A stretch of 64,000 bases of DNA from an uncultured Lentisphaerota bacterium (GTDB lineage: Bacteria; Verrucomicrobiota; Kiritimatiellia; RFP12; UBA1067), in the NCBI GenBank assembly GCA_900320225.1, contig ONRL01000003.1, forward strand, positions 48,509 to 112,508. Reading direction: 5' to 3'. A program made the translations under genes and the position numbers. Below are positions 7,863 through 23,195 of the stretch, in pieces. Each line of letters starts with the position of its first letter. Position 1 is the first letter of the stretch. The notes under the pieces were generated by a model. The model made no database searches, was not told the origin of the DNA, and saw only the letters and a program-made list of their open reading frames with translations.

Positions 7863-7940
7863 GGGGAGTGTTGCCAATGTGCAAGTGTTGCCAGTTTCCA
7901 GTGTTACCAATTTCCAATTGAGTGAGGGCTGTTGGGGCGC

Positions 7941-8420: not shown

Positions 8421-8479
8421 TCAACGCGATGTCCAAAACGGCACCGATTGTCGCTGCGTTGTTGGTGGCTGCTGGCGGC

Positions 8480-8509
8480 TTGACAAATGGGGGTATGATT
8501 TGGTATTCT
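8480..8509 (+). promoter_or_regulatory. sigma70-like promoter for the small-ORF/GNAT pair
   Basis: TTGACA-18 nt-TATTCT. Confidence 0.4.
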
Positions 8510-8563
8510 CCACGCCGAACCCTTACCGGGATTGCTTTTGCGATCAGTAGAAAGGAGAAAATC

Positions 8564-8752
8564 ATGAGGATAATAACGGATGAATATAGAGAGCAATTGC
8601 TGAAAAACAGGGTGTATCAGATGATTGTCAATACACCTAAGCCGGATTTTACTCAGTTGGACAAGGAAGTCGCTGAGTTTGAGGAGTGGATTGCGCAAGA
8701 ACATAAAAAGGAGCGCGAGGCGAGGTTGGCGCACGGAGCGAGTGCAAGATGA
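8564..8752 (+). CDS. small protein, candidate antitoxin of the downstream GNAT toxin
   Basis: 62 aa with a strong AAAGGAG SD before ATG 8564. Its stop overlaps the next ATG (ATGA at 8749-8752). No recognisable DUF1778 motif, so the role is inferred from context only. Confidence 0.45.
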   Translation: MRIITDEYREQLLKNRVYQMIVNTPKPDFTQLDKEVAEFEEWIAQEHKKEREARLAHGASAR

Positions 8753-9324
8753 AAATAGACGCTCTCAATTTGAATACTGAACATTTTACGGTCGAGCATT
8801 TGCAGAACACTCCTGCGAATCGCCGGTTGATTGAGAGCTTTTCCGCACCAAACAATGCTATGGGGCTTGAAGCGTACCTAAAGTTACAGGCCGAGAGCGA
8901 TGAGAACAGCAATGGAAGCAGGACTTTTCTCGTAAAGGACGCGGAGACGGGACGGTTGGCTTGTTATTTCTCGTTGCGGTCAGGTCTAATAGCGATACGG
9001 CGCGAAGATGATTTGTTTGACACTATCCCAGCCATAGAGCTAGCGAATTTCGCTGTTAACGATACCTATCGTTCGGAAAGCGGCAAGGTCGCAAAGGTCG
9101 GAGCTTATGCTTTTAGACGTTTTGTGCAACCTATAGTGAAGAATGTTTCAGACCTTGTGGGCGTTCAATGCCTGTATATCTATGCATTGCCAAAGGAAAG
9201 ACTGATTCAGTACTACGCTTCACTTGGTTTCATGCGCTTACCAAGTGAGGATGAGGCTTTTGTGCACAGCCATGTCAAGCCGGCTTATGATAGAGGGTGC
9301 ATTTTCATGTATCAGGGGATTTGA
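8749..9324 (+). CDS. GNAT-family acetyltransferase, TacT-like toxin candidate
   Basis: GNAT core pattern IELANFAV...G..GAYAF...LYIYALP..RLIQYYASLGF. Translationally coupled to a small upstream ORF. AT-richer than its surroundings. Confidence 0.6.
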   Translation: MKIDALNLNTEHFTVEHLQNTPANRRLIESFSAPNNAMGLEAYLKLQAESDENSNGSRTFLVKDAETGRLACYFSLRSGLIAIRREDDLFDTIPAIELANFAVNDTYRSESGKVAKVGAYAFRRFVQPIVKNVSDLVGVQCLYIYALPKERLIQYYASLGFMRLPSEDEAFVHSHVKPAYDRGCIFMYQGI

Positions 9325-9367
9325 GATAGTACCCGCTATAGGGATGGTGGAGGATGCGCGCGGGGGC

Positions 9368-9557
9368 GGGCAGAAGCGGCAAGAGTGCCGCTTCCCCGAG
9401 GTGCGGTGCGTTGGTGTGCGCGGGCGAGTTCGCCCGCGCTTTTTTTTTGTGGGAGTGGGAGGGCGTGGGAGGGACGTAGGACGTAAGACGTAGGACTTTG
9501 GTTGCTTTGGGGGAGCCCGTAAGGCAAGCCAAAGTCTTACGTCCTACGTCTTACGCC
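9368..9557 (+). repeat. composite intergenic element, copy 2
   Basis: Near-identical to 7941-8130 when aligned by eye. Lies after the GNAT toxin gene. Confidence 0.85.
9418..9448 (+). terminator. intrinsic terminator within composite element copy 2
   Basis: GCGCGGGCG-AGTT-CGCCCGCGC followed by nine T. Confidence 0.8.
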
Positions 9558-9570
9558 CTGAAAGGGGATG

Positions 9571-9630
9571 AGGACAAAGGACAGAGGACAAAAGACAAAG
9601 GATTTAGGACTTCGGACATTGGGACAGAAA
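9571..9630. repeat. GGACARAG-word tract
   Basis: AGGACAAAGGACAGAGGACAAAAGACAAAGG..., the same word family as 16521-17762. Confidence 0.6.
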
Positions 9631-9711
9631 ATAGAAAAGCTTAAGAGAAACATCGAGCTTTATGGCATTTAATCGCAGTTAATTGCATTAATAGCGACAG
9701 GCCGTCGTTTG

Positions 9712-9720
9712 TGCTATAAT
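9712..9720 (+). promoter_or_regulatory. extended -10 promoter (TGcTATAAT) upstream of the Fic gene
   Basis: Perfect TATAAT with TGn, 27 nt before ATG 9748. Confidence 0.5.
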
Positions 9721-9747
9721 ATTGGGCGCTCTAAAAAATAGAAAACC

Positions 9748-11259
9748 ATGGGCAAGAATGGCAGAGATCGACTAGCAGAAGCGCTTGAAGCGTTGAAAAC
9801 GCTTCAAGATCGTGAACCATGCTATGCCATAAAGGGAATGAAAACCCTTGGCGAGGTTAATTCCCGGATGTTGCTGGAAAACGGTTTTCTGGAAGAAGTC
9901 ATAAAAGGCTGGTACATTCCGTCCACGCCTTCGCATGTTGGAACGACAACGACATGGTATGCTTCGTTCTGGGGTTTTGTTGCGGCATATTGTGATTCAC
10001 GTTTTGGCAATGGTTGGACATTGACGCCGGAAGAGTCACTTAGCATATGGAGCGGGGCGAATGTAATCCCCAGCCAGGTAGTCGTTCAGGCGAAGAAAGG
10101 CTCCAACAGCATCCAGCAGCTCATACACGGGCATTCGATTTTCAACTTCACGACTCGAATCCCGGATTGCATTGTCCGTGATCCGACATACGGGCTCAAT
10201 CTGTATCCGCTTGAGATGGCGCTCCTGCGCTGCTCCCCCGATTTCTTTGCGACCCATGCCGAGGAAGTGCGTGCGTGCCTTCATGCGATTGAACCGGGAG
10301 ACGCGCTTTCTTCCGCGGTAGCCGATTATGGCGGCGAGCATGCCAACCGCCTGGTCGGCGCCTTGAGGGCGGTGGGACGGCACGAGGTCGCGGATTTTAT
10401 AGCTGCCGTACTGGAATCAACGGGCCGCCGTCTTGTCGCCGTCAATCCTTTCGTCCGCACATTTGAAACGGTCAGCCTCCCTGAGAGATCTCCACATTCA
10501 TCGCGAATCCGCTTGTTGTGGAGCAAGATGAGGGAAAGGGTCTTGGCGCTGTATCCCGCAGCCGAAAGTGATTTGCCGCGGCCGATTGAAGATGTCTTGA
10601 GGGAACTCGACGAGGGATATGTCGCCGACTCCTACCATTCGTTGTCCATCGAGGGGTATCGGGTGACAGAGGACTTGATACGGCGGATACGCGACGGCGT
10701 CTGGGATCCGGAAGCCCATGCGCAAGACGGCGACCAGCGCACTGCATTGGCGGCATCTGGCTACTATCGTGCCTACCGCAGGGTACGTGCGGACGTTGCA
10801 CGAATCATCTGCGGCGAACATGTCGGCGAAGTCATTTCTTCTTCGCTGGAAGACTGGCACCGCGAACTTTTCATGCCGTGCGTTGATGCCGGACTGATTC
10901 GAAGCGGAGAGCTTTCCGGATATCGACGGACACAGGTTTATATCGCGGGGTCACGTTACACCCCGCCATCTGCAGCCTTGGTCGTCGATTCAATGGAGGC
11001 CTTTCTCGACCTCGTGAAAACGGAGCCGGACCCTCGCGTGCGGGCGATTCTCGGACATTTCTTCTTTGTCCACATACATCCGTATGCAGACGGCAATGGG
11101 CGCACCGCCCGCTTTATCATGAACGTGTCGTTGATTACGTCTGGCTACAAGTGGAAAGTGATTCCAGTTGAACGGCGTGACGACTACATGTCGTCGCTGG
11201 AAAGGGCAAGCGTCACGGGCGAGATCGATGGCTTCGTGAATTTCATAAAAGATTGTTGA
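9748..11259 (+). CDS. Fic-domain protein (class II, with internal inhibitory helix)
   Basis: Canonical Fic motif HIHPYADGNGRTARF, plus an upstream SLSIEG matching the (S/T)xxxE(G/N) inhibitory motif. Confidence 0.85.
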   Translation: MGKNGRDRLAEALEALKTLQDREPCYAIKGMKTLGEVNSRMLLENGFLEEVIKGWYIPSTPSHVGTTTTWYASFWGFVAAYCDSRFGNGWTLTPEESLSIWSGANVIPSQVVVQAKKGSNSIQQLIHGHSIFNFTTRIPDCIVRDPTYGLNLYPLEMALLRCSPDFFATHAEEVRACLHAIEPGDALSSAVADYGGEHANRLVGALRAVGRHEVADFIAAVLESTGRRLVAVNPFVRTFETVSLPERSPHSSRIRLLWSKMRERVLALYPAAESDLPRPIEDVLRELDEGYVADSYHSLSIEGYRVTEDLIRRIRDGVWDPEAHAQDGDQRTALAASGYYRAYRRVRADVARIICGEHVGEVISSSLEDWHRELFMPCVDAGLIRSGELSGYRRTQVYIAGSRYTPPSAALVVDSMEAFLDLVKTEPDPRVRAILGHFFFVHIHPYADGNGRTARFIMNVSLITSGYKWKVIPVERRDDYMSSLERASVTGEIDGFVNFIKDC

Positions 11260-11339
11260 GTTGGTCGGACGGTGGAGGATCGATCCGGTTGCAAGCGGGT
11301 GGTTGAGGAGTCGCGCGAGGTGAAGCGCTACGGCGTGTG

Positions 11340-11483
11340 AGGGGGCGGCGGCGGTCGCAACAAGTTGCGACCCTCCCGGCGCGAGGGGCGGCGCGCTCGG
11401 CGAGCGCGCACTACCATTCGGGGAAGCGGCAAGAGTGCCGCTTCACGGTCGCGCAGGCGCGCGACCCTCCCGGCGCGAGGGGC
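11340..11483. repeat. array of short GC-rich hairpin modules (REP/BIME-like)
   Basis: GGTCGCAAC-AAG-TTGCGACC-CTCCC, GGCGCGCTC/GAGCGCGC, GAAGCGGCA/TGCCGCTTC and GGTCGCGC-AGGC-GCGCGACC-CTCCC. Same module types as at 8131-8420 and as inside CDSs. Confidence 0.7.
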
Positions 11484-11667
11484 GGGCAGAAGCGGCAAGA
11501 GTGCCGCTTCCCCGAGGTGCGGCGCGTTGGTGTGCGCGGGCGGGTTCGCCCGCGCTTTTTTGTGGGGTGTGGGAGGACGTGGACGGACGTAGGACGTAAG
11601 ACGTAGGACTTTGGTTGCTTTGGGGGAGCCCGTAAGGCAAGCCAAAGTCTTACGTCCTACGTCTTAC
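11484..11667 (+). repeat. composite intergenic element, copy 3
   Basis: Near-identical to copies 1 and 2. Lies after the Fic gene. Confidence 0.85.
11534..11561 (+). terminator. intrinsic terminator within composite element copy 3
   Basis: GCGCGGGCG-GGTT-CGCCCGCGC followed by TTTTTT. Confidence 0.75.
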
Positions 11668-11688
11668 CTCCTTTGTTGAATCTGCCAG

Positions 11689-11718
11689 TTGCGCGGCGCG
11701 CGCTGAATATGGTATACT
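11689..11718 (+). promoter_or_regulatory. promoter TTGCGC-18-TGgTATACT
   Basis: -35 TTGCGC at 11689-94, extended -10 at 11710-18. Confidence 0.5.
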
Positions 11719-11767
11719 GTGCACAGCCGAGAAATTTTTAAGGCAAATGAAAAGGAGGAAGATTGGG

Positions 11768-13612
11768 ATGAGACGAGTTTGTTCGCTGTGCGCGTCGGTG
11801 TCTTTTGCATTCCTGTCTGCCGTCGCCGCAGGCCCGACGATTCAGACCGCCGATTTCACGGGTGCGGAGCCGCCTGCCGGGTGGACGGTGGCGAACGGCG
11901 AGTACCGTTCGCCCGAATACGCGGGCGCCGTTGATAAAATCGTCCTTTGTTATGCCGGCTCAGGCGCTTCCGCCTCCGCCACGGTACACGCATTTCCGGC
12001 GAATGAAGAGGGGGTGAACGTTGCAACGTTCACGGCAGCATCCTCTGGCGCGTCGTTCGACTTCCCCGAGTCCACCGCGTTCCGTTCGTTTCGCATCGCC
12101 GCTGCAAACGGCCTTGCGCTCTCGTCTTTCACGGCGTACGTCGCGTCGGATTCGCTGGATGTTCCGTCGGGGGTCTTGATATCGAACAACGTCACGGGCA
12201 CTTCGTTCGACGCCGCGTGGAACGCCGTCGAAGGCGCGACGGGATACCGTGTCTACGTGTGGACGAACGCCGTCACCGGCGCATCGGCGGGAACGACGGT
12301 TTGGCAAGAGACGTTTGCGAACTCCCCCGCGAAGACCACGACGGTCAACTTCAAGGACGAATTCACGGACTACGGTACTTCAGGTTGGGAATACAGCAAA
12401 GCCTACGCCTCGATTTCCTACGGGGCCGTCAGAATCGGCACGACATCCGACAAGGGTTACCTCGTTTCGCCGCCGTTAACGCATGTTTCTGGATCGGGAC
12501 TCGCTCTCCGCATCACGGCGTGGCGGCAGACCACGGGTGATGGAACGGACATGCCTGTCGGCGTGGTGTCCGGCGGGGTGACGAACATCGCGGGTGTCGT
12601 TGCGCTGGGCGATGAGCCCGCCACGATCCATGTGGCCTTGCCGACGTTCAATTCCGGAGACAGAATTGCGATCTTCTCTCCGACGAACAAATCGTCCGCT
12701 CGCGTGATCGTCGATGACGTCGCGGTTCTGTCCGGTTATTCCGCCGGACATCCCGAGCCGTTGTACATCGTCAACGGCCTTGATGTCGGCGCGGCGACCG
12801 CGCATTCGTTCAGCGGACTGCCGCCCGTTCCGGTTTCCTTCGCGGTCGAGGCGTACGGTCGCCGCGGCGTGTCGTCGGAAACGACGGAGGCCGTGGTTGT
12901 CGATCTTGCGAATCCGGACCCGGTTCCCGTCCTGAACGCCTGTCCGATGTCGTCCCTTGCGGGTAACATTTATCACCAGAACTTCAATGGCACCGCGGCG
13001 TTGACGTCCTCGTCGGGCGACAAGGATCTGCTGAACGGCACGACGGTTCTGTACTGGCAGTGGTTCAAGAACGCCTTGGCGGCCGGCACATTCAAGTGGA
13101 ATGCCGGATCGGGCACGACGGGTGGAATCTATGCGCTGGCCACGAATCAGAGCGAGACGGTGCGTTCAATCGGCGCTTATTCGACGAAGGACAACGAGTT
13201 CTCCTTTGGCATTGCGTTTACCAACGACACAGGCAAGGCAATGAAGTTGGTCTCGCTTGCCTATCTCTCGCAGCAGTGGGGATTCAAGAACTCCACCAAC
13301 CAGACGCTTTCGGTCGCCGTCAAGGTTGTGGACAACCTTGACTGGATTTCTGCCTACGTGGATGGTTGGACGGAACTGGCTTCGAAGGAATCCGACGTGT
13401 ATGGCACAGGGGATCCCCACGATACGCCGGTCTCCACGTCCGTCCCGGTCAATCCGGAAGGGGGCATTCCCATCGCCCCCGGTCAGGTGTTGATGCTCAA
13501 GTGGACGATCCATTCGCTGAAGGGCGGTACGCCCGGCATGATGGGCATCGACGACGTGACCGTGACGTTTCAGGGGTCGGTCGGGTTGTCCATCAGGATC
13601 GCCGGTTGGTGA
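11768..13612 (+). CDS. secreted protein with fibronectin type III-like domain, function unknown
   Basis: AAGGAGG SD 9 nt before ATG 11768 and signal-like N-terminus MRRVCSLCASVSFAFLSAVAA. FN3-like segment NVTGTSFDAAWNAVEGATGYRVYVW. The stop codon lies within the hairpin-element flank. Confidence 0.6.
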   Translation: MRRVCSLCASVSFAFLSAVAAGPTIQTADFTGAEPPAGWTVANGEYRSPEYAGAVDKIVLCYAGSGASASATVHAFPANEEGVNVATFTAASSGASFDFPESTAFRSFRIAAANGLALSSFTAYVASDSLDVPSGVLISNNVTGTSFDAAWNAVEGATGYRVYVWTNAVTGASAGTTVWQETFANSPAKTTTVNFKDEFTDYGTSGWEYSKAYASISYGAVRIGTTSDKGYLVSPPLTHVSGSGLALRITAWRQTTGDGTDMPVGVVSGGVTNIAGVVALGDEPATIHVALPTFNSGDRIAIFSPTNKSSARVIVDDVAVLSGYSAGHPEPLYIVNGLDVGAATAHSFSGLPPVPVSFAVEAYGRRGVSSETTEAVVVDLANPDPVPVLNACPMSSLAGNIYHQNFNGTAALTSSSGDKDLLNGTTVLYWQWFKNALAAGTFKWNAGSGTTGGIYALATNQSETVRSIGAYSTKDNEFSFGIAFTNDTGKAMKLVSLAYLSQQWGFKNSTNQTLSVAVKVVDNLDWISAYVDGWTELASKESDVYGTGDPHDTPVSTSVPVNPEGGIPIAPGQVLMLKWTIHSLKGGTPGMMGIDDVTVTFQGSVGLSIRIAGW

Positions 13613-13700
13613 GGACGTAGGACGCAAGACGTAGGACTTTGGTTGCTTTGGGGGAGCCCGTAAGGCAGGCCAAAGTCTTACGTCCTACGTCTTACGTCCT
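13601..13700. repeat. GACGTAR-arm long hairpin, copy 4 (between convergent genes)
   Basis: GGTTGGTGAGGACGTAGGACGCAAGACGTAGGACTTTGG - loop - CCAAAGTCTTACGTCCTACGTCTTACGTCC. Contains the stop codons of both flanking genes. Confidence 0.85.
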
Positions 13701-14868
13701 TTCCAGGACCGTCGCGTAGCGCGGCAATGAGGCGCGTACGGTCGAACAGCTCTTCGGAGAGCTGGCGGGCACGGGCACCGCACGCGGGGCCCGCGCCGCG
13801 TTTGATGAGCTCCGCCATGCGGCGGAAGGCGTCCGCGATGGCGTCGAGGTCGTCCGGAGGCGCCGTCACGCCGAGCTGGTGTTCCTCGATGAGCTCGCGC
13901 GCGTCGCCGAGGAGGATGCCGAGGATCGGCTTGCCGGTCTTGATGTAGCTCTGGAACTTCCCCGGCAGGGTGAGCTGGTATTCCGGCGTGAGGGAGATGA
14001 TGAGCGCGTCCGCCTGCGCGAACCAGCGCGGCATGTCCGCCTTCGGCTGGCGTCCGTGGAACACGGCGCGCGCGCCGGAGGCGGCTGCCTTTTCCTTGAG
14101 GTGCTCGAGCTGCACGCCGCCGCCCACGAAGTGGAGTTCCGCGTCGGGGATGTCCGCGCGGGTGAAGCCCTCGAGGACGTTGTCGAGGTCCTGCGGCACG
14201 CCGAGGTTTCCCGCGAACATGAAGACGAGCCCCGCGTGCGGCGGCGCGGGGGGGAGTTCCATCGGCGCGGGGTCCCACTGCGGCACGAATTCGGCCTCGC
14301 GCCTGCAAAGCTCGCGGATGCGCGGCACGAACCCGCGGCAGCTCACGCAGATGCGGTCGCAGCGCTTGTAGATGCGGCGCACGAACCAGTTGAGGAGCGC
14401 CTCGCGGAAGCGCGTGCGCCGGAAGCCGAACCCCCATACGGCGTCCGGCCAGAGGTCCTGGGTCCAGATCGCGGTGGGCTTGCGCCAGACGGTCTTGAGC
14501 GCGAAGAGGGCGCTCGCCATCGTGAGGGCGGCCGTGTGGTACACGAACACGCGGTCGTACTTGCGCCCGTTCCAGAGCGCCCACCAGAACGTCATCCAGC
14601 CGAAGTGGAGGTAGTTGAGCACCTTGCGCTTCACGCTCGTGTTGTAGCCGAAGATGGTGCTCACGCGGTGGACGGGGATGTCGAGGTACTCGCGCGTGGT
14701 CTGGTAGGCCTTGTTCTTGTAGCCGTCGTAGACGCGGTCGAAGGGGTAGCTGGGCACCTGGGTGAGCACCTCCACCTCGTCGCCGAGTCGTTTCCACTCC
14801 GCGACGAGGTCGTTCACGAGGAAGTCCTCGGGGTAGAACCGCTCGACGATGACCAAGATTTTGCTCAT
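13678..14868 (-). CDS. glycosyltransferase family 4, WcaI-like
   Basis: N-terminus MSKILVIVERFYPEDFLVNDL...QVPSYP is typical of WcaI-type GT4 enzymes. The C-terminal codons and stop lie in the arm of hairpin element 13601-13700. Confidence 0.75.
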   Translation of the reverse strand: MSKILVIVERFYPEDFLVNDLVAEWKRLGDEVEVLTQVPSYPFDRVYDGYKNKAYQTTREYLDIPVHRVSTIFGYNTSVKRKVLNYLHFGWMTFWWALWNGRKYDRVFVYHTAALTMASALFALKTVWRKPTAIWTQDLWPDAVWGFGFRRTRFREALLNWFVRRIYKRCDRICVSCRGFVPRIRELCRREAEFVPQWDPAPMELPPAPPHAGLVFMFAGNLGVPQDLDNVLEGFTRADIPDAELHFVGGGVQLEHLKEKAAASGARAVFHGRQPKADMPRWFAQADALIISLTPEYQLTLPGKFQSYIKTGKPILGILLGDARELIEEHQLGVTAPPDDLDAIADAFRRMAELIKRGAGPACGARARQLSEELFDRTRLIAALRDGPGKDVRRRT

Positions 14869-14878
14869 GGGAGCAAAT

Positions 14879-14887
14879 AGTATAGCA
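14879..14887 (-). promoter_or_regulatory. extended -10 promoter (TGcTATACT on minus strand), 10 nt before ATG 14868
   Basis: Reverse complement of AGTATAGCA. Confidence 0.45.
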
Positions 14888-14902
14888 TATTTCGGGGGGA
14901 TG

Positions 14903-14968
14903 GAGGACGTGGGACGTAAGACGTAGGACTTTGGCTGCTTTGGGTGAGCCCGTAAGGCGGGCCAAAGG
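14903..14968. repeat. GACGTAR-arm hairpin, copy 5a (left arm plus loop only)
   Basis: Left arm and conserved loop are present; the right arm is replaced by GGCTAAGCGG leading into copy 5b. Confidence 0.7.
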
Positions 14969-14970
14969 CT

Positions 14971-15070
14971 AAGCGGTTGGTGAGGACGTGGGACGTAGGA
15001 CGTAGGACTTTGGCTGCTTTGGGGGAGCCCGTAAGGCGAGCCAAAGTCTTACGTCTTACGTCCTACGTCC
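14971..15070. repeat. GACGTAR-arm long hairpin, copy 5b
   Basis: Shares the GGTTGGTGAGGACGT left flank with copy 4, and has full arms and loop. Confidence 0.85.
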
Positions 15071-15108
15071 TTGTCCCACGGTCCCACGCCTTTCCTAAAA
15101 GTTACCCC

Positions 15109-15137
15109 TTGCGCATGCCAATGGGGTGTGATAAACT
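15109..15137 (+). promoter_or_regulatory. promoter TTGCGC-17-TGaTAAACT driving the structured RNA and RNA ligase
   Basis: -35 at 15109-14, extended -10 at 15129-37. Confidence 0.45.
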
Positions 15138-15143
15138 AAGCCC

Positions 15144-15422
15144 ACCTGCCCGGAATTGATGCCGTCGATGCGGCTATACGGGGGCAGGCGTCCGGACGGG
15201 ACCCATGCCTGGCGTGCATGGGATCCTCTTGGGCCGGGTAGCGAGTTCATCCGCTGAAAAACGCGGATTGCCCGAAAGGGTTGGCGAGGCAGGGCCTATT
15301 CCTGACCATGCAGAGCTGTTTCTGCGTGGGGTTACTGCTGGTGCGGCGTCACTGTCGAGTGGCGAGGATGCCGCATGGCGGCCGCAAGGCCGTTTCAACA
15401 GAGTAACGACAGGAGTATCTCA
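15144..15422 (+). ncRNA. candidate structured leader or ncRNA upstream of RNA ligase
   Basis: Promoter 15109-15137 predicts a TSS near 15144. No credible ORF. Nested helices and two GNRA tetraloop hairpins are visible (CCC-GAAA-GGG 15271-15280; GGCC-GCAA-GGCC 15380-15391), along with a long-range pair GTTACT 15331-36/AGTAAC 15402-07. Confidence 0.35.
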
Positions 15423-16520
15423 ATGAGAAAACTGGCATCCCTGGTGGAGATCGCCTCGTGCGATCCCATCCCCGATACGGAACGGCTTTCCGTGGCAACA
15501 ATGAAAGGCAAGGGCTGGCGCGTAGTCACCGGCCGCGGCGAATTCGCGTCCGGCGACAAAGCGGTATACTTCGAAATCGACAGTTATCTTCCGCCGGACG
15601 ATGAACGCTTTGCGTTCCTCCGTGAACGGTGCCTTCGCAAGTTCGTGTCAAAGAGCGGCAGCGTGCTGCGCGAGGGGTTCCGTATCAAGACGGCGAAACT
15701 TCGCGGCGTCGTGTCGCAGGGGCTACTCATGCCTCTCGCGGCTTTCCCCGAGGCAAATGGGCTGGAGGTGGAGGCGGACCTGACCGATCTGCTGAAAGTC
15801 GACCACTACGACGAAGTGAAGGAACAGCTTCAGCCCGCCATGGGGAATCCGCTGAACTCCGACGCGATGGGGGCGTTCCCATCGTACATTCCAAAGAGCG
15901 ACGAGGAACGGCTTCAGGGGTTGACCGAGTACTTCACGTCGCTGAAGGGGCGCCGCTTTGAGATCACGGCGAAGGACGACGGTTCGTCCGCGACGATGTT
16001 CTTCTCGCCGACGATCGATCCCGAGGAACCGTTCGGTGTCTGTTCGCGGAACCTGCGTCTGAAGCGTCCGGTGGAAGGGGGCGTCGTCTCGGCGTTCTGG
16101 CAGACTGCCGTGAAATACGACATCGAGGCGAAGCTCAGGAAGTTCTTCGAGGAATCGCACCTTGAAATCGCCTTGCAGGGCGAATTGGTCGGCCCTGGGA
16201 TCAACGCCGACCGGGACCGTTATTCGGAATACGAATTCCACGTCTTCAGGATCTGGGACGTGTGCGCGCAGCGTTTCATGATGCCGCGCGACCGCGTGGC
16301 GTTCTGCGCGAAGTTCGCGATCCCGCATGTACAGGTGCTGCACGAGGATTTCCCGTTCTTTGACAAGGTCACGACGATGGACGCCGCGCTCAAGTTCGCC
16401 GAGGGCAAGACCCTGCGGGGCAACGAGCGCGAGGGGATCGTGCTGAAGGCTTCTGATGGGCTTGACGACACGCACTTCAAGGTCGTGTCGAACAGGTACT
16501 TGCTGAAGCAGCAGGATTGA
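15423..16520 (+). CDS. ATP-dependent RNA ligase, Rnl5/DRB0094 (DraRnl-like) family
   Basis: N-terminal OB-like module (VEIASCDPIPDTERLSVATMKGKGWRVVTGRGEFASGDKAVYFEIDS) followed by nucleotidyltransferase motif I AKDDGSS. AGGAG lies 7 nt before ATG 15423. Confidence 0.75.
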   Translation: MRKLASLVEIASCDPIPDTERLSVATMKGKGWRVVTGRGEFASGDKAVYFEIDSYLPPDDERFAFLRERCLRKFVSKSGSVLREGFRIKTAKLRGVVSQGLLMPLAAFPEANGLEVEADLTDLLKVDHYDEVKEQLQPAMGNPLNSDAMGAFPSYIPKSDEERLQGLTEYFTSLKGRRFEITAKDDGSSATMFFSPTIDPEEPFGVCSRNLRLKRPVEGGVVSAFWQTAVKYDIEAKLRKFFEESHLEIALQGELVGPGINADRDRYSEYEFHVFRIWDVCAQRFMMPRDRVAFCAKFAIPHVQVLHEDFPFFDKVTTMDAALKFAEGKTLRGNEREGIVLKASDGLDDTHFKVVSNRYLLKQQD

Positions 16521-16627
16521 GGACAGAGGACAGAAGACGGAGGACAGAGGATGACAGGACAAAGGACCTTGGACAATGGGACGCGCGAAGCGACGGGTCT
16601 TTGTCTTTTGTCTTTCGTCCTCTGTCC
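16521..16627. repeat. long imperfect hairpin with GGACARAG-word arms, 'empty' copy
   Basis: GA-rich left arm 16521-16568, loop TTGGACAATGGGACGCGCGAAGCGACGGG 16569-16597, CT-rich right arm 16598-16627. Confidence 0.75.
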
Positions 16628-16638
16628 TAAAACGAGAA

Positions 16639-16758
16639 AGGACAAAGGACAGAAGACGGAGGACAAAAGATGTTAGGACAAAGGACAGAAGACGGAGGAC
16701 AAAAGATGTTAGGACAAAGGACAGAAGACGGAGGACAAAGGATGTTAGGACAAAGGAC
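16639..16758 (+). repeat. 36-bp tandem repeat (3.3 copies) of GGACARAG words
   Basis: AGGACAAAGGACAGAAGACGGAGGACAAAAGATGTT at 16639, 16675 and 16711, with a partial fourth copy running into the loop motif at 16760. Confidence 0.85.
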
Positions 16759-17542
16759 TTTGGACAATGGGACGCGCGAAGCGACGGGATCATTCCGGAT
16801 CATTGGCCATTATGGCGGGTATCGGAAGATGTACTCCTTCGGGTTCACGTGTCTCGTGTACCACGCAACGACGTTATTCTGCAAGCGCAACTTCAACTAC
16901 AGGAACGACGCTCTCGGCAAGACCGTGGGACAGATGGTCGGTGCCGCTCGGAGTGCGCGCCAGAACATCGTCGAGGCGTCGAGCCGCGCTGCGACGTCCA
17001 AGGAGCAGGAGCTACGACAGCTAGATGTCGCGAAGGGCTCGCTTGACGAGTTGGCCGGCGACTACGAAGTGTTCCTCGTGGATGCGGGCGAGGCGCCGTG
17101 GTCGCAGTCCGACGAACGTTATCAGACGGTCAAGGCGCTGAAACTGGACGCCTTCGACGCAACGGACGATCTTGACCATGAGTTCGGGGAATACATTCTG
17201 GCGATGCGACGGCGCTGTGCCGAGTGGCTTGAGAACGAAGACCCTCTTGTCGCTGCGAATGCCATCCTGATCACGATCCGCAGGGCCGCCGCGTTTTTGA
17301 AGGGCCAGATGGACAAGACGGCCGATGCGTTTCTTGAAGAAGGCGGTTTCACCGAACGGATGAGCCGTGCGCGAATCGTGGCACGTGACGAGAAGACGCG
17401 CGCGAACCATGGCGACACGCCGAAATGTCCGCGCTGCGGACGCAATCTCCGCAAGATGGTGGCACGCAAGGGCCGCAACGCGGGGAACGAGTTCTGGGGA
17501 TGTTCCGGCTATCCAGAGTGCGACTTCACGCGGAACGTGTGA
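16742..17542 (+). CDS. four-helix-bundle protein (23S rRNA IVS-protein family, suffix-domain type) fused to a C-terminal topoisomerase-type C4 zinc ribbon
   Basis: GGYRKMYSF...GQMVGAARSARQNIVEASSRAATSKEQELRQLDVAKGSLDELAGDYEVFL matches the four-helix-bundle family pattern. The C-terminus CPRCGRNLRKMV...FWGCSGYPECDF is a Topo-type Zn ribbon. The start is uncertain because the N-terminal codons lie in 36-bp tandem repeats. Confidence 0.6.
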   Translation: MLGQRTLDNGTREATGSFRIIGHYGGYRKMYSFGFTCLVYHATTLFCKRNFNYRNDALGKTVGQMVGAARSARQNIVEASSRAATSKEQELRQLDVAKGSLDELAGDYEVFLVDAGEAPWSQSDERYQTVKALKLDAFDATDDLDHEFGEYILAMRRRCAEWLENEDPLVAANAILITIRRAAAFLKGQMDKTADAFLEEGGFTERMSRARIVARDEKTRANHGDTPKCPRCGRNLRKMVARKGRNAGNEFWGCSGYPECDFTRNV

Positions 17543-17568
17543 ACCGCGGCAAGGCGCTGGCTCTCCGG

Positions 17569-17762
17569 CCTTTGTCTTTTGTCCTTTGTCCTCCCGACTT
17601 TGTCTTTTGTCTTCTGTCTTCTGTCCTGAAGGGGAAAGAGGACAGAGGACAAAGGACAGAAGACAAAGGATGGGACAGAGAACAAAGGACAGAGGACAAA
17701 GGATGAGACGAGAGGACAGAGGACAGAAGACAAAGGACAGAGGACAAAGGACCTTGGACTTT
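17569..17762. repeat. CT-rich arm, short loop and extended GGACARAG-word tract after the four-helix-bundle gene
   Basis: CCTTTGTCTTTTGTCC... 17569-17626 is complementary in type to the GA arms. Local hairpin with 17640-17670. Ends in GGACAAAGGACCTTGGAC. Confidence 0.75.
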
Positions 17763-17775
17763 GGGCCCTAAAATG

Positions 17776-17784
17776 TGGTATACT
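17776..17784 (+). promoter_or_regulatory. extended -10 promoter (TGgTATACT), 7 nt before fnlA ATG 17792
   Basis: The spacing implies a leaderless or near-leaderless mRNA. Confidence 0.5.
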
Positions 17785-17791
17785 ATAACCC

Positions 17792-18811
17792 ATGTTTGAC
17801 GACAAAGTGCTTTTGATTACCGGCGGGACGGGTTCGTTCGGCCACGCCGTGCTGCAGCGGTTCATCAACGACTTCCGCGAGATCCGCATCTTCTCCCGCG
17901 ACGAGAAGAAGCAGGACGACATGCGCCACGAGCTGCAGAACGACAAGGTGAAGTTCTACATCGGCGACGTGCGCGACCGCGCGAGCGTGGACGGCGCGAT
18001 GCGCGGCGTCGACTTCGTGTTCGCCGCAGCCGCCCTCAAGCAGGTGCCGAGCTGTGAGTTCTTCCCTCTTGAGGCCGTGCGCACAAATGTGATTGGCACG
18101 AACAACGTGATTGAGAGTGCCGTCGCGAACGGCGTCTCCCGCGTGGTGGTGCTCTCCACCGACAAGGCCGCCTACCCCATCAACGCGATGGGGATGTCCA
18201 AGGCCCTCATGGAGAAGGTCGCCATCGCCAAGGGACGCGCCCTCGGCCCGAACGCCCGCACCACGATCTGCTGCACGCGCTACGGCAACGTGATGGCGAG
18301 CCGCGGGAGCGTGATCCCGCTCTTCATCGAGCAGATCAAGGCCGGCAAGGACATCACCGTGACCGATCCCGAGATGACGCGCTTCATGATGACCCTCGAG
18401 GAGGCCGTGGACCTCGTCCTCTTCGCCTTCGAACACGGCGTGAACGGCGACCTCTTCGTGCAGAAGTCCCCCGCGGCCACGATCGGCGTCCTCGCCCAGG
18501 CCATCCTCGAGCTGAGCGGGTCGAAGTCGAAGATGCAGGTGATCGGCACGCGCCACGGCGAAAAGAAGTTCGAGACGCTCGTGACGCGCGAGGAGATGGC
18601 CAAGGCGATCGACATGGGCGCCTACTACCGCATCCCCGCCGACACGCGCGACCTCAACTACGACAAGTACTTCGTCGAGGGCCGCACGATCGCGCCGACG
18701 GTCGAGGACTACGACTCGAACAACACCGAGCGCCTGGACGTGCCGGGGATGAAGAAGCTTCTCCTGAAGCTCGCGTGCGTGCGCGAGGCGTTCGGCCTTG
18801 ACAACGCATAA
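17792..18811 (+). CDS. fnlA: UDP-N-acetylglucosamine 4,6-dehydratase/5-epimerase (CapE/FnlA/WbjB)
   Basis: Near-colinear similarity to S. aureus CapE as recalled: MFDDK.LLITGGTGSFG...IFSRDEKKQDD...FYIGDVRD...AAALKQVPSCEFFP...STDKAAYPINAMG.SKA.MEK. Confidence 0.9.
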   Translation: MFDDKVLLITGGTGSFGHAVLQRFINDFREIRIFSRDEKKQDDMRHELQNDKVKFYIGDVRDRASVDGAMRGVDFVFAAAALKQVPSCEFFPLEAVRTNVIGTNNVIESAVANGVSRVVVLSTDKAAYPINAMGMSKALMEKVAIAKGRALGPNARTTICCTRYGNVMASRGSVIPLFIEQIKAGKDITVTDPEMTRFMMTLEEAVDLVLFAFEHGVNGDLFVQKSPAATIGVLAQAILELSGSKSKMQVIGTRHGEKKFETLVTREEMAKAIDMGAYYRIPADTRDLNYDKYFVEGRTIAPTVEDYDSNNTERLDVPGMKKLLLKLACVREAFGLDNA

Positions 18812-18826
18812 GGGAGGTCGGCCGTC

Positions 18827-19948
18827 ATGCGCGTGTTGGTGACCGGGGCGAAGGGGTTCGTGGGGAAGAACCTGTGTCTGGCGCTCGGGCGGATGGAGGG
18901 CGTGGAGGTCCTGCGCTACGACCTCGGCAACACGCGTGCGGAGCTGGAGGAATGGGCGGGGACGTGCGACTTCGTGTTCCACCTCGCGGGCGTGAACCGT
19001 CCGAAGGACCCCGCCGAGTTCGCGAAGGGCAACACCGGCTTCACCGAGGAGCTGTTGGCGCTTCTCGCGCGCCGTCCCGTGCCCGTGCTGCTGAGTTCGA
19101 GCATCCAGGCGGCGCTCGACAACGACTACGGGAAGAGCAAGGCGGCGGCCGAGGAGGCGGTGCGCGCGTACGGCGCGCGCACGGGCGCGCCCGTGTACGT
19201 GTACCGTCTCGCGAACGTGTTCGGCAAGTGGTGCCGCCCCAACTACAACAGCGCCGTCGCCACATGGTGCCACAACCGTGCGCGCGGACGCGACATCCAG
19301 GTGCGCGACCGTGCCGCGACCGTGACGCTTGTCTACATCGATGATGTGGTGAGCGCCTTTACCTCGCGTCTCACGTCTCACGTCTCTTGTCCCCCAGCGG
19401 AAGCATCCTCGATTCTCTCCGTCTCCCCCGCATATACCAAGACGCTGGGCGAGATCGTCGATTTGATCGAGACGTTCGTGGACGAGCCGCGCACGCTCGA
19501 CGTGCCGGACCAGCGGGACGGCTTCGCGAAGAAGCTCTACGCAACCTACCTCAGCTACCTGCCCGAGGACCAGTTCGCCTACCCGCTCACGATGCACTGC
19601 GACAACCGCGGCAGCTTCACGGAAATCCTGCACACGGCCGAACGCGGACAGGTGAGCGTGAACGTGTCGCGTCCCGGCATCACGAAGGGACAGCACTGGC
19701 ACCACACGAAGCACGAGAAGTTCCTCGTGGTGAGCGGCGAGGGGGCGATCCGGTTCCGCAAGATGGACGACCCGTCCGCGCAGGTGATCACGTACCGCGT
19801 GAGCGGCGCGAAGCTGGAGGTCGTGCGTATCCCGCCCGGGTACACGCACAACATTGAGAATCTGGGGACGACGGACATGGTGACGGTGATGTGGGCGAAC
19901 GAGGTGTTCGACCCGCAGCGTCCTGACACGTTCCGCGAGGAGGTGTAA
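18827..19948 (+). CDS. fnlB: CapF/FnlB-type reductase/epimerase (SDR N-domain plus cupin C-domain)
   Basis: Position between fnlA and fnlC. GAKGFVGKNL Rossmann motif, KKLYATYLSYLP and a cupin-like C-terminus, all typical of CapF. Confidence 0.8.
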   Translation: MRVLVTGAKGFVGKNLCLALGRMEGVEVLRYDLGNTRAELEEWAGTCDFVFHLAGVNRPKDPAEFAKGNTGFTEELLALLARRPVPVLLSSSIQAALDNDYGKSKAAAEEAVRAYGARTGAPVYVYRLANVFGKWCRPNYNSAVATWCHNRARGRDIQVRDRAATVTLVYIDDVVSAFTSRLTSHVSCPPAEASSILSVSPAYTKTLGEIVDLIETFVDEPRTLDVPDQRDGFAKKLYATYLSYLPEDQFAYPLTMHCDNRGSFTEILHTAERGQVSVNVSRPGITKGQHWHHTKHEKFLVVSGEGAIRFRKMDDPSAQVITYRVSGAKLEVVRIPPGYTHNIENLGTTDMVTVMWANEVFDPQRPDTFREEV

Positions 19949-19953
19949 AAGAG

Positions 19954-21081
19954 ATGGAGAAGCTGAAGGTCATGACGGTGGTGGGTACGCGCCCGGAGAT
20001 CATCCGCCTCGCGTGCACGCTCAAGGCGCTGGAGGCGAGTCCGGCGATCGACCATGTACTCGTGCACACGGGCCAGAACTACGACTACGAGCTGAACGAG
20101 GTGTTCTTCAAGGACCTTGGCCTGCGCAAGCCCGACCACTTCCTGCAGGCGGCGGGACGCAACGCCACGGAGACGGCGGGGAAGATCCTCGAGGCGATCG
20201 ACCCCGTCCTGGAGGCGGAGAAGCCGGACGCCTTTCTCGTCCTGGGCGACACGAACTCGTGCCTCTGCACGATCGCGGCGAAGAAGCGCCACATCCCGAT
20301 CTTCCACATGGAGGCGGGAAACCGCTGCTTCGACCAGCGCGTGCCGGAGGAGTCGAACCGCAAGATCGTGGACCACATCAGCGACATCAACCTCTGCTAC
20401 AGCGACATCGCCCGCGAGTATCTGCTGCGCGAGGGACTGCCGCCCGACCAGGTGATCAAGACGGGCAGCCCGATGTGCGAGGTGCTCGCCGCGCAGCTGC
20501 CGAAGGTGAAGCGCAGCGCCGCGAAGGTGCTGAAGGCGAACGGCGTCGCGAAGGGGAAGTACTTCGTGGTGAGCGCGCACCGCGAGGAGAACATCGCCGA
20601 GGAACGGCACTTCTTCGGACTCGTCGACGCGCTGAACGAGATTGCGGCGACGTACAAGCTGCCGCTCATCGTCAGCACGCACCCCCGCACGCGCAAGATG
20701 ATCGAGAAGAAGGGCGTGAAGTTCAATCCGCTCGTGCGCCTGATGAAGCCGATGGGCCTCACGGAGTACCTCGCCCTCCAGCTGAACGCGAAGGCGGTGC
20801 TGAGCGACTCGGGCACGATCAGCGAGGAGTCGAGCATCCTCGGGTTCCCGGCGCTCAACCTGCGCGAGGCGCATGAGCGTCCGGAGGCGATGGAGGAGGC
20901 GGCCGTGATCATGACAGGGCTCTCGAAGGAACGCATCCTGCAGGGCCTCGCGCAGCTGACGGTCTGCGGCAAGGTGCGCCAGGTGGCGGACTACTCGATG
21001 CCGAACGTGGGCGAGAAGGTGGTCAAGATCATCCTCTCCTACACCGACTACATCCGCCGTCGCGTGTGGATGGAGGGGTGA
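19954..21081 (+). CDS. fnlC: UDP-N-acetylglucosamine 2-epimerase (non-hydrolysing), CapG/FnlC type
   Basis: VVGTRPEIIRL...HTGQNYDYELN...GDTNS...EAGNRCFD is the WecB-family pattern. Third gene of the fnl operon. Confidence 0.9.
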   Translation: MEKLKVMTVVGTRPEIIRLACTLKALEASPAIDHVLVHTGQNYDYELNEVFFKDLGLRKPDHFLQAAGRNATETAGKILEAIDPVLEAEKPDAFLVLGDTNSCLCTIAAKKRHIPIFHMEAGNRCFDQRVPEESNRKIVDHISDINLCYSDIAREYLLREGLPPDQVIKTGSPMCEVLAAQLPKVKRSAAKVLKANGVAKGKYFVVSAHREENIAEERHFFGLVDALNEIAATYKLPLIVSTHPRTRKMIEKKGVKFNPLVRLMKPMGLTEYLALQLNAKAVLSDSGTISEESSILGFPALNLREAHERPEAMEEAAVIMTGLSKERILQGLAQLTVCGKVRQVADYSMPNVGEKVVKIILSYTDYIRRRVWMEG

Positions 21082-21116
21082 CGCATTTGAGAAAACACGG
21101 CACTAAAGGAGAACAC

Positions 21117-23195
21117 ATGACGGAGAGAATCAAGTCGCTGCTCGACCGCACGTTCGCGAAGGAGCAGAAGAAGTTCCGGCGGGACCATGACTGGAAACCG
21201 CTGCTGGACACGTTCATCGCCGCGAAGGCCAATGACTCCGCGCGCGCCCGCATGGGGCTCGTCGCGATGCTCAAGGCGGAGCAGCCCGCGTTCATGGAGG
21301 GCGAGACGATCGCGTTCCTCCGCACCGTGAAGCAGATCCCCGACCTCCACTCCGACGAGGAGATGGCCGCGTTCCGCGCGGCCGGCACGGCGTTCGGCGA
21401 GAAGGGCGTGGTGTTCAACCTCACGGCCGACTTCGGCCCCACGATCCGCGACGGCCTGCTTGCGCGCATCTCCGAGATGGAGGCTCGCATCGCGCGTTGC
21501 CGCGCCGAGGGCGACGCGGAGGGCGTCACGTTCCTTTCCGACGCGATCCTCTCCACGACGGCCGTCCTCGAGCTCGCGGACCGCTACCGCGCCGCGGCGG
21601 CCGAGCAAGGCTTCACGAAGGTCGCCGAGACGCTCGCCCAGGTGCCCGCGCGCGGCGCGCGCACGTTCCACGAGGCGCTGCAGAGCCTGCGCATCCTCCA
21701 CTACGCGATGTGGTGCGAGGGCGAGTACCACTGCGGCCTCGGGCGCATCGACCAGTACCTCTATCCCTATCTCGAAGCCGACCTCGCGGCGGGGCGTCTC
21801 ACCGAGGAGACCGCCCTTGAGGAGCTCGAGGAGTTCTTCATCGCCTGCAACCGCGACAGCGACCTCTACATTGGCGTGCAGCAGGGCGACAACGGCCAGA
21901 GCGTCATGCTCGGCGGCGTCACGCGCGACGGCAAGCCCGCGTTCAACCTGCTCTCGCGTCTCGCGCTGAAGGCCTGCGGCGAGCTGAAACTCGTGGATCC
22001 CAAGATCAACCTGCGCGTGGACAAGTCCACGCCGATGGAGATCTACGAGCTCGGCACCGAGCTCACGAAGGCGGGCCTCGGTTTCCCGCAGTACGCGAAC
22101 GACGACGTGGTGATCCCCGCGCTCCAGAAGTGGGGCTACGAGCTCGAGGACGCGCGCGACTACTCTGTGGCCGCGTGCTGGGAGTTCCTTATCCCCGGCT
22201 GCGGCATGGACATCAACAACATCGACGCCGTCTCGCTGCCGTCGTGCCTCGACACCGTGATGCGCGGGGAGGGCCGCGCTCCCGCGCGGCCGGAAACCTT
22301 CGACGCGCTGAAGGAATCCCTCCGGGCGGAGATCAACCGCCGCTGCGACGCGCTCCAGGAGAAGTACAAGCATGTGGAGATCTTCCCGGGGCCGTTCGTC
22401 TCCGTAATTTCCACCGGTTGCATCGAGCGGGCGCGCGACCTCTCGAAGGGCGGCAAGTACAACAACTTCGGCATCCACGGCACGGGCATCGCCGTGGCGG
22501 TGGACTCCCTCGCGGCGGTGCGCGAGCTCGTCTTCGAGAAGAAGCTCGTGACGATGGAGGAGCTCGTGCACCTCATGGACACCGATTTCGAGGGCCGTCC
22601 CGACATCCTCGCCGCCGCGCGCCACGCGCCGAAGATGGGCAACGCGGACGCCGCGGCGGACGACATCGCCGTGTGGCTCGTCGCCACGTGGGCGGACGCG
22701 CTCAAGGGCCGCCGCAACGACCGCGGCGGCATCTACCGTCCGGGAACCGGCAGCGCGATGTACTACATCTGGCACGCGAACGAGCTGCCCGCGTCGGCGG
22801 ACGGCCGCCTGAAGGGCCATCCGTTCAGCGCGAACTACGCGCCGTCGCTCGACGTGCCCGTGAAGGGTCCGCTCAGCGTGATCCGTTCCTTCACCGAGCC
22901 CGACCTCGGGCCGGTCTGCAACGGCGGACCGCTCACGATCGAGGTGCACGACAGCGCCTTCCGCGAGCCGGACGGCGTAGAGAAGGTGGCGCAGCTCGTG
23001 AAGTTCTTCGTGGACCGCGGCGGACACCAGCTGCAGATCAACTCCATCAACCGCGAGACGCTCGTGGACGCCCAGGCGCATCCCGAGCGCCACGCGCACC
23101 TCATCGTGCGCGTGTGGGGCTGGAGCGGCTACTTCATCGAGCTCGACAAGCCGTTCCAGGACCAGATCATCAAACGCGTGGAACTGGCGGTCTAA
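21117..23195 (+). CDS. glycyl radical enzyme, PFL2/dehydratase-like family, substrate unknown
   Basis: C-terminal glycyl-radical-like motif LIVRVWGWSGYF, candidate Cys loop AACWEF (Cys-x-Glu), and a PFL2-like N-terminus. AAGGAG SD before ATG 21117. Confidence 0.7.
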   Translation: MTERIKSLLDRTFAKEQKKFRRDHDWKPLLDTFIAAKANDSARARMGLVAMLKAEQPAFMEGETIAFLRTVKQIPDLHSDEEMAAFRAAGTAFGEKGVVFNLTADFGPTIRDGLLARISEMEARIARCRAEGDAEGVTFLSDAILSTTAVLELADRYRAAAAEQGFTKVAETLAQVPARGARTFHEALQSLRILHYAMWCEGEYHCGLGRIDQYLYPYLEADLAAGRLTEETALEELEEFFIACNRDSDLYIGVQQGDNGQSVMLGGVTRDGKPAFNLLSRLALKACGELKLVDPKINLRVDKSTPMEIYELGTELTKAGLGFPQYANDDVVIPALQKWGYELEDARDYSVAACWEFLIPGCGMDINNIDAVSLPSCLDTVMRGEGRAPARPETFDALKESLRAEINRRCDALQEKYKHVEIFPGPFVSVISTGCIERARDLSKGGKYNNFGIHGTGIAVAVDSLAAVRELVFEKKLVTMEELVHLMDTDFEGRPDILAAARHAPKMGNADAAADDIAVWLVATWADALKGRRNDRGGIYRPGTGSAMYYIWHANELPASADGRLKGHPFSANYAPSLDVPVKGPLSVIRSFTEPDLGPVCNGGPLTIEVHDSAFREPDGVEKVAQLVKFFVDRGGHQLQINSINRETLVDAQAHPERHAHLIVRVWGWSGYFIELDKPFQDQIIKRVELAV

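Follow-up and report, generated by a model that had tools for sequence, protein, structure and literature searches.

A stretch of 64,000 nucleotides from contig ONRL01000003.1 of an uncultured Lentisphaerota bacterium (the window, whose numbering is used throughout; the source is a rumen Kiritimatiellae bacterium) contains, at positions 15109–17762, a structured RNA, an Rnl5 RNA ligase gene and a gene for a four-helix-bundle (4HB) protein with a zinc ribbon, all set within a surface-polysaccharide locus. An initial annotation had treated the three as a single accessory cassette with a possible joint function. All three components are present in the polysaccharide locus, as confirmed by profile matches, covariation and an AlphaFold2 (AF2) model, and the combination is, as had been supposed, not a described system; the claim that it constitutes a new system is weakened by the analyses below. 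Instead, with a probability of about 0.55, we read the segment as two adjacent units rather than one dedicated system: an autonomous ligase unit with a new leader RNA, and an element resembling the intervening sequences (IVSs) of 23S rRNA, which carries the gene for the 4HB–zinc-ribbon (4HB-Zn) protein. Unit 1 (15109–16520) would be a self-contained transcription unit comprising an extended -10 promoter, a leader of ~280 nt and the Rnl5 ligase gene. Unit 2 (16521–17762) would be an IVS-like element, in which the S23p-type gene for 4HB, suffix and zinc ribbon lies between hairpins built from (R)GACNNN heptads. The features of the segment are as follows.

14905–15071, unstranded: double hairpin of GGACGTA-type heptads at the left boundary (dG -113 kcal/mol)
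15109–15137, forward strand: extended -10 promoter (TTGCGC at 15109–15114, a 17-nt spacer, and TGaTAAACT at 15129–15137)
15139–15422, forward strand: structured 5' leader RNA (~280 nt, 12 helices), defined by RNAalifold and covariation
15423–16520, forward strand: Rnl5 RNA ligase of the DraRnl/NgrRnl type, 365 aa
16521–16628, unstranded: GGACARA-type heptad hairpin between the ligase and 4HB genes (dG -52.8 kcal/mol; inverted repeat I12)
16640–16766, forward strand: tandem array of ~3.5 copies of a 36-nt repeat, with heptads GACAAAG, GACAGAA and GACGGAG (direct-repeat families D1 and D2)
16742–17542, forward strand: 266-aa protein with 4HB (S23p/TIGR02436), 4helix_suffix (TIGR04258) and C4 Topo-type zinc ribbon
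17569–17762, unstranded: nested GGACARA-type heptad hairpins at the right boundary (dG -101 kcal/mol; inverted repeats I1, I2 and I15)

Comparison of the window with homologous contigs and loci (designated by L-numbers) shows that the hairpins accompany the 4HB-Zn gene and not the three-part cassette. The recurrence of GAC/GTC at spacings of 3–12 nt was counted over 300 nt on each side of the genes. All 16 flanks of eight 4HB-Zn loci display a sharp peak at 7 nt, with 5–21 recurrences (<=3 at the other spacings). At nine ligase-only loci, by comparison, the 18 flanks each give 0–1 at this spacing. The 7-nt peak persists at 4HB-Zn genes that are only 63–68% identical and stand in unrelated contexts, such as after recA or between Big_2 genes; the heptads there are AGACGYG or GGACGAA, with the GAC core and the period both kept, in hairpins with dG -73 to -174 kcal/mol. 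The conserved unit is hairpin, 4HB-Zn gene, hairpin. That heptad hairpins are general to 4HB-suffix proteins was considered and rejected: a Prevotella nigrescens homolog (L137 3902–4591, NZ_CP082843.1), a 4HB-suffix protein that is 32% identical and has no zinc ribbon, is not flanked by them and has only a short palindrome downstream. The heptad association is therefore a property of the zinc-ribbon subfamily, and of the described Coxiella IVS, not of every relative. No description of the hairpin–gene–hairpin layout of this subfamily, or of its link to the IVS heptamers, was found in the literature, nor was anything found there on heptad hairpins in Kiritimatiellae.

The hairpins of the window are 100–200 nt long (dG -50 to -113 kcal/mol), with stems of 7-nt units and tips of GCGAAGC or C-GUAA-G. 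The window contains 19 matches to (GGACNNN)4, whereas chance alone would give 0.01, and every one of them falls within 8–18 kb. At the left boundary, two 68-nt direct repeats (94% identical) have inverted arms that are 94% complementary; the 16521–16628 hairpin, whose tip is a GCGAAGC mini-hairpin, occupies the same position in L001, L003, L017, L020, L031 and L040; and further heptads lie at 16640–16766 and 17574–17760, with complementary arms I6 and I13–I25. Both of the hairpins that the initial annotation had described as bracketing the module exist. An additional hairpin and the 36-nt tandem array separate the ligase and 4HB genes. Solo GGACGTA-type hairpins, of the same subfamily as 14905–15071, also stand at 8043–8130, 9472–9552, 11585–11665 and 13613–13700, so that the bracketing is not specific to the module.

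The IVS in the 23S rRNA of Coxiella burnetii has been described as a selfish element; its S23p open reading frame (ORF) is preceded by tandem GACAGAT/GACAGAA heptamers, and its terminal inverted repeats are cut by RNase III (PMC4990558). In the window, GACAAAG, GACAGAA and GACGGAG stand directly before, and overlap, the 4HB start codon, and it is at the equivalent place before the Coxiella ORF that the copy number of the heptamers varies (PMC4990558). Because of these shared heptamers and the flanking heptad hairpins, 16521–17762 may be read as an IVS-like, hairpin-bounded element. The likeness to the 23S IVSs of Coxiella and Leptospira extends to the S23p-type ORF, the tandem GACAGAN heptamers before its start and the complementary repeats that form very stable stems. 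Unlike them, the window element is located in a protein-coding polysaccharide locus (from the ligase gene to fnlA) and not in helix 25 or 45 of the 23S rRNA, and each of its flanks forms its own hairpin of ~100–200 nt, rather than one terminal stem. A single IVS-like, long-range stem around the 4HB ORF was rejected, as the minimum-free-energy (MFE) fold of 16510–17770 is dominated by local hairpins. Furthermore, whereas the Coxiella ORF is decaying, the window protein is twice as long, with its suffix and zinc ribbon, and strongly conserved, and because of this conservation it is probably expressed. All eight of the suffix and zinc-ribbon loci examined are flanked by hairpins, and the heptamer shared with Coxiella connects the IVSs of rRNA with a wider class of elements bounded by hairpins. 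Unit 2 would be a selfish or semi-autonomous element.

The S23p four-helix-bundle proteins have been an orphan family for 30 years, and the heptad link provides a concrete hypothesis for them: the 4HB-Zn protein would bind the heptad repeats, as DNA or as RNA. The protein scores above cut-off with TIGR04258 (50 bits, cut-off 40; residues 194–239 of the 290-aa ORF, C-terminal to the bundle) and with PF01396 Zn_ribbon_Top1 (40.3 bits, cut-off 32). Its match to TIGR02436 is marginal (24.9 bits, cut-off 24) and that to PF05635 falls below the threshold (24.5, cut-off 33.8), with only residues 85–129 matched. The zinc-binding cysteines C229, C232, C254 and C260 (CxxC...CxxxxxC) are invariant in 23 homologs. 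When the AF2 model (pLDDT 83.6) was compared with known structures using Foldseek, high probabilities were obtained only for 2gsc (Xcc0516; 1.00, target TM-score 0.66–0.78) and 2rld (BT_0352; 0.66–0.99), with weak E-values of about 0.1–0.7; the best match for the modelled fold is an S23p-type four-helix bundle. The 4HB, suffix and zinc-ribbon architecture is found in at least 852 clusters at 90% identity, in proteins of ~250 aa with the invariant cysteines and a GAARSARQN..E motif. Some of the homologs carry the source name 'four helix bundle suffix protein', and the fusion is an established, already catalogued family. At the 5' end of the window ORF, three in-frame ATGs (16670, 16706 and 16742) lie in successive copies of the 36-nt repeat; the start is likely the ATG at 16742, giving 266 aa as in P0121, rather than that at 16670. 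A changed number of 36-nt repeats would alter the N-terminus of the protein or the distance to its start codon.

Unit 1 begins with a promoter of its own, as the initial annotation had proposed. It was missed by a simple consensus promoter scan (8/12 positions match); its CTTG and TG.TA.A.T are invariant in 7/7 aligned homologous loci, within surrounding sequence that varies. In several of the relatives a canonical intrinsic terminator (GGCGGCGGCGCGGTGACGCCGCCGCTCGTTTTTTT) lies just 5' of the leader promoter (L001 5680–5716; also L002–L004, L017, L018 and L035), and in the window its place is occupied by the double GGACGTA hairpin.

The leader is a real, non-coding RNA. RNAalifold predicts a consensus of 12 helices with 83 pairs, of which 28 are compensatory among six sequences. 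When the alignment was extended to 11 sequences, 95.5% of cells were paired, compared with 38–46% when the partners were slid by 1–3 columns; 33 pairs were changed on both sides, and none of 500 shuffles reached the observed values. These homologs come from 11 contigs and form four lineages that are mutually 61–72% identical. A small protein in place of the RNA was rejected, because the candidate 73-aa ORF (15205–15426, overlapping the ligase start as ATGA) is broken by stop codons in three lineages (L019, L020 and L027). Long junction sequences are invariant (GGAAUUGAUG, GCGUCCGGAC, CUUGGGCCGGGUAGCGAGUU and GGCAGGGYCUAUUCC), and a possible GGAAU/AUUCC pseudoknot is compatible with 11/11 sequences, its support consisting of a one-sided A/G change alone. 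A search of 15100–15440 against Rfam (release 15) gave no family at E<=10, the sole match being 15 nt of TCV_H5 at E=10, and a search of the 4.5 kb from 14000 to 18500 at E<=1 gave no leader family and no rRNA match; the generic miRNA-hairpin matches that it did return fall on the heptad hairpins alone, far below gathering scores. A covariance model of the leader (R1) found no match at the ligase-only loci searched (including L023, L026, L028, L050 and L051) or at 80 IMG/VR ligase loci. The exact RNA motif pattern gave 0 matches in viral contigs and 11 in GTDB representative genomes, of which three are the leader RNA; the other eight, all of which fail the RNA model save the marginal L032 (E 0.31), were taken as chance matches. 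The leader is an RNA class so far undescribed and the most novel part of the locus. It lies between promoter and start codon, with a conserved structure and covariation, and would act in cis, controlling the ligase in response to a ligand or a protein. Between its last helix and the start codon of the ligase lie 15 nt, a spacer that varies in both sequence and length.

The ligase itself is an intact Rnl5-type enzyme, because it aligns end to end with Naegleria Rnl5 (NgrRnl, PDB 5COT, residues 5–339 of 340; E 1e-47) and conserves motifs I, IV and V, and it adds a new member to a known family. The catalytic lysine of motif I, K184, lies in a KDDG that aligns with KLDG of NgrRnl, and motifs IV (EGIVLK, 337) and V (FKVVSN, 352) align with EGLVFK and FKAISN, respectively. 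The profile matches delineate an N-terminal OB domain (PF21189, PHA02142 OB domain; residues 4–105, E 1.8e-25) and a C-terminal adenylyltransferase (PF09414, RNA_ligase; residues 178–355 of 365, E 2.1e-24), without an additional C-terminal domain. The OB and nucleotidyltransferase layout and the KxDG, EG..K and FK..SN motifs are those of the Rnl5 family (DraRnl/DR_B0094 and NgrRnl). The enzyme differs from that family in scoring just below the cut-off of TIGR02306 RNA_lig_DRB0094 (147.6 bits, cut-off 151.15; full model covered, 2–341 of 341) and in being preceded by the structured leader; the other ligase loci examined are leader-less, and the available portions of the Rnl5 papers contain no such RNA. 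Rnl5 enzymes need 3'-OH/5'-PO4 nicks in duplex RNA (PMC1807946, PMC5397189), and what the family does physiologically is still described as 'uncharted' (PMC5397189). By its family membership, the window ligase would be expected to seal 3'-OH (RNA)/5'-PO4 nicks in duplexes. Rnl5 ligases are widespread in bacteria, phages and some eukaryotes, and a conserved, complex leader presents a testable entry to their role; if the leader were a dedicated Rnl5 sensor, it would be the first regulatory handle on what these enzymes respond to in cells.

The two units may nevertheless share a transcript. Unit 2 lies directly 3' of the ligase gene, and because neither the scan nor inspection of the sequence revealed a promoter-like site between the ligase and 4HB genes, it is probably co-transcribed from the promoter of the leader, as an operon formed by insertion; no intrinsic terminator was found between the two genes. 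A more far-reaching picture is rather unlikely as a whole: that the ~280-nt leader is a new riboswitch, ribozyme or protein-sensing RNA dedicated to the Rnl5 ligase, and that hairpin, 4HB-Zn gene and hairpin form an unrecognised IVS-like family in ordinary operons, with a protein that recognises (R)GACNNN duplexes and RNase III-type processing that is buffered by the ligase.

The main rival is a three-part system, in which leader RNA, Rnl5 ligase and 4HB-Zn protein cooperate in RNA repair or in an anti-phage or anti-toxin function; we consider it unlikely, and the neighbourhood survey proposed with the initial annotation gives a divided answer. The best argument for such cooperation is that the order RNA, ligase, hairpin and 4HB gene is kept, despite shuffled neighbours, in the window, L001, L003/4, L017/18, L020, L031 and L040, with ligase and 4HB also together in L024, where the upstream region is cut off. 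At the loci with all three components the ligases are 75–96% identical, the RNAs fall into four lineages and the surroundings differ; L040, in the GTDB representative metagenome-assembled genome RGIG2765 (goat omasum), contains the same block as the window, with 96% identity for the ligase, 99% for the 4HB protein and 96% for FnlA. A further five loci (L002, L019, L022, L027 and L030) have RNA and ligase up to the contig end. The single promoter also favours a joint function, as do the defence-type genes nearby, such as that for a SoFic-like Fic protein. In a neighbour-joining tree, loci with the RNA and the 4HB gene form the basal branches of the Kiritimatiellae ligases, and the ligase-only loci nest within this clade; the tree is crude but fits an old RNA–ligase–4HB linkage that was later lost.

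A precedent for such a partnership is provided by PF05635, which includes Avd of the diversity-generating retroelements, a protein that acts together with a structured RNA and a reverse transcriptase (PMC10053308). By analogy, an RNA-binding 4HB-Zn protein might target or regulate the ligase, and the window does resemble the Avd arrangement in placing a four-helix-bundle family protein alongside a structured RNA and a nucleic-acid enzyme. However, no reverse transcriptase or template and variable repeats were found in the ORFs around the module (the search did not extend over the whole window), the window protein has the extra suffix and zinc-ribbon domains, and the partnership with the ligase is putative.

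Set against the three-part system is the distribution of its components, each of which appears from the loci compared to have an independent life: they do co-occur, but only within one narrow clade. Ligases that are 76–84% identical stand alone in other Kiritimatiellae loci (L005/6, L007, L021, L025, L042/43, L044 and L045–49), often 13–60 nt behind the preceding gene, and at these ligase-only loci (L005–7, L021, L025 and L042–49) there is no RNA, no 4HB gene and no heptad hairpin. The closest ligases from outside the Kiritimatiellae (52–62% identical) are encoded on large contigs, of up to 285 kb, two of them in IMG/VR. L023 belongs to an IMG/VR contig, L058; the gene content of L050 and L051 is phage-like, with many unannotated ORFs. 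A ligase homolog is present in 343 GenBank phage records, and among 80 IMG/VR ligase loci the RNA was found in 0/80 and the 4HB-Zn gene in 0/80. Most of the sampled 4HB-Zn homologs (63–85% identical) are likewise without a nearby ligase or RNA; they occur in polysaccharide loci beside AAA-ATPase/PDDEXK, AAA_14/DUF4143 or Tle1-like genes, as well as downstream of recA and between Big_2 surface-protein genes. In L035 (uncultured rumen bacterium RUG14821, 2457–2841, minus strand) the rest of the block has outlived the ligase: the leader is joined directly to the heptad region and the 4HB-Zn gene, the ligase ORF is missing, precisely and in its entirety, together with one hairpin, and the junction at AGGA/AAGGAC suggests a deletion through AGGA-containing repeats. 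Finally, no model in PADLOC-DB 2.0 matches the ligase or the 4HB-Zn protein, the nearby Fic protein alone matching SoFic, and no paper linking Rnl5 with S23p/4HB proteins was found. To catalogue the adjacency of ligase and 4HB genes as a defence or repair 'system' would be premature.

The reading as two adjacent units has its own difficulties, and the following points weigh against it. The RNA–ligase–4HB order is constant over about four RNA lineages and several flanking arrangements, a greater persistence than would be expected of a neutral juxtaposition in a locus that shuffles. The leader RNA is seen only where the 4HB-Zn gene or heptad hairpins are present, never beside the ligase alone, and in L035 it drives the 4HB gene directly; functionally it could belong with Unit 2, or with both units. 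In contrast to riboswitch-type leaders, that of the window has no detectable expression platform, as there is no U-tract terminator and the ribosome-binding site is unpaired in the consensus fold, and for this reason a cis-regulatory role is unproven. The sample is also small and mostly from metagenomes, amounting to ~8 independent loci for 4HB-Zn and ~15 for close ligases.

The missing expression platform would suit a different explanation, which we regard as improbable: that the RNA, instead of being a regulator, is released by processing of the transcript's 5' end as a non-coding species in its own right and serves as a substrate or scaffold for the ligase, the 4HB-Zn protein or both, by analogy with the rsr–Y RNA–rtcBA operon. 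In operons of the Salmonella rsr-yrlBA-rtcBA type, RNA-repair enzymes are combined with non-coding RNAs, and a structured RNA is co-transcribed with an RNA ligase gene; here, the ligase is Rnl5 and not RtcB, and the leader has no Y-RNA, YrlA or other Rfam match. The RNA is unusually large and complex for a leader, given its 12 helices, long invariant junctions and possible pseudoknot, and it was kept upstream of the 4HB-Zn gene where the ligase is deleted in L035, but its end is only 15 nt away from the start codon and it contains no terminator or recognisable processing signal.

Very unlikely is a coupling between RNase III and the ligase, in which transcripts through the heptad hairpins would be cut by RNase III, like the stems of 23S IVSs, to leave 5'-PO4 and 3'-OH ends and Rnl5 would reseal the duplex nicks, so that the mRNA of the host operon would be protected or joined again around the inserted element. 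In its favour are the architecture of heptads and inverted repeats, found also in the Coxiella IVS that RNase III excises, the requirement of Rnl5 for exactly such nicks in duplex RNA (PMC1807946, PMC5397189) and the position of the ligase directly beside heptad hairpins in this clade. Against it, the coupling is conjecture throughout, RNase III normally makes staggered double-strand cuts and not ligatable nicks, most hairpin and 4HB-Zn elements have no ligase nearby, and the MFE fold around the 4HB gene yields local hairpins without a clean long-range IVS-like stem.

On the two-unit reading, both units would be passengers in a hypervariable zone of accessory cassettes that are permuted at hairpins. 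The order of the glycosyltransferase cassette (13713–14907) and the RNA–ligase–4HB block (15152–17484) is swapped in L001 (5730–9252), L003/4 and L031, and the homology with the window breaks at heptad hairpins; L001 and L003/4 are relatives that are ~88% identical in DNA. An order swap with breakpoints at hairpins points to recombination there, and the aligned arrangements show the block moving as one piece. The initial annotation had described the module as inserted between a WcaI-like glycosyltransferase gene and fnl genes that would otherwise be adjacent. This is borne out in L001 and L003/L004, where the glycosyltransferase adjoins fnlA; in L031 the module lies upstream of the same glycosyltransferase, and fnlA is outside the locus. 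The hairpins resemble repetitive extragenic palindromic (REP) sequences, bacterial interspersed mosaic elements (BIMEs) and miniature inverted-repeat transposable elements (MITEs), in that they are very stable intergenic structures repeated at gene boundaries, with solo copies, and located at rearrangement breakpoints. They differ from them in the strict 7-nt period of their stems and in being tied to one protein family on both flanks, and no RAYT or transposase gene was found near the window hairpins. Surface-polysaccharide loci of rumen Kiritimatiellae would gather and reshuffle accessory cassettes at hairpins of this kind.

The surface-polysaccharide (O-antigen/capsule) locus spans 1–21 kb of the window. 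Genes for asparagine synthase, LicD, glycosyltransferases, an acyltransferase, an epimerase and Wzy come first and are followed by accessory genes and then by fnlA/fnlB/fnlC (17792–21081). The features around the segment are as follows.

8564–9324: unannotated pair of genes for proteins of 62 and 191 aa, between Wzy and fnlA
9748–11259: SoFic-like Fic protein (PADLOC SoFic match)
11747–13612: secreted protein of 621 aa with no family
13678–14868, minus strand: GT4 glycosyltransferase
17755–17784, forward strand: promoter-like site of fnlA (TGGACT, 18-nt spacer, TG-g-TATACT), which marks the end of the module unit
17792–18811: fnlA (PF02719, 1.3e-99)

The accessory genes of 7900–15100 are set apart from one another by the near-identical solo GGACGTA-type hairpins, in a layout that resembles a hairpin-delimited cassette array. 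Most of the sampled Kiritimatiellae Rnl5 genes are in, or at the edge of, polysaccharide loci (L045–L049 being the exception), and certain accessory families recur beside them in L005, L007, L042, L044 and the window, namely AAA_14/DUF4143, ATPase_2/DUF234, Fic and HAD. Over much of 1–10 kb the GC content is 0.40–0.57, compared with ~0.65 in the remainder of the window, consistent with a part of the polysaccharide locus that is variable and exchanged horizontally. Directly after fnlC lies the gene for a PFL-like glycyl-radical enzyme (21066–23195; PF02901 4e-95 and Gly_radical), whose ORF, with a GTG start at 21066, shares 16 nt with the end of the fnlC ORF (21081).

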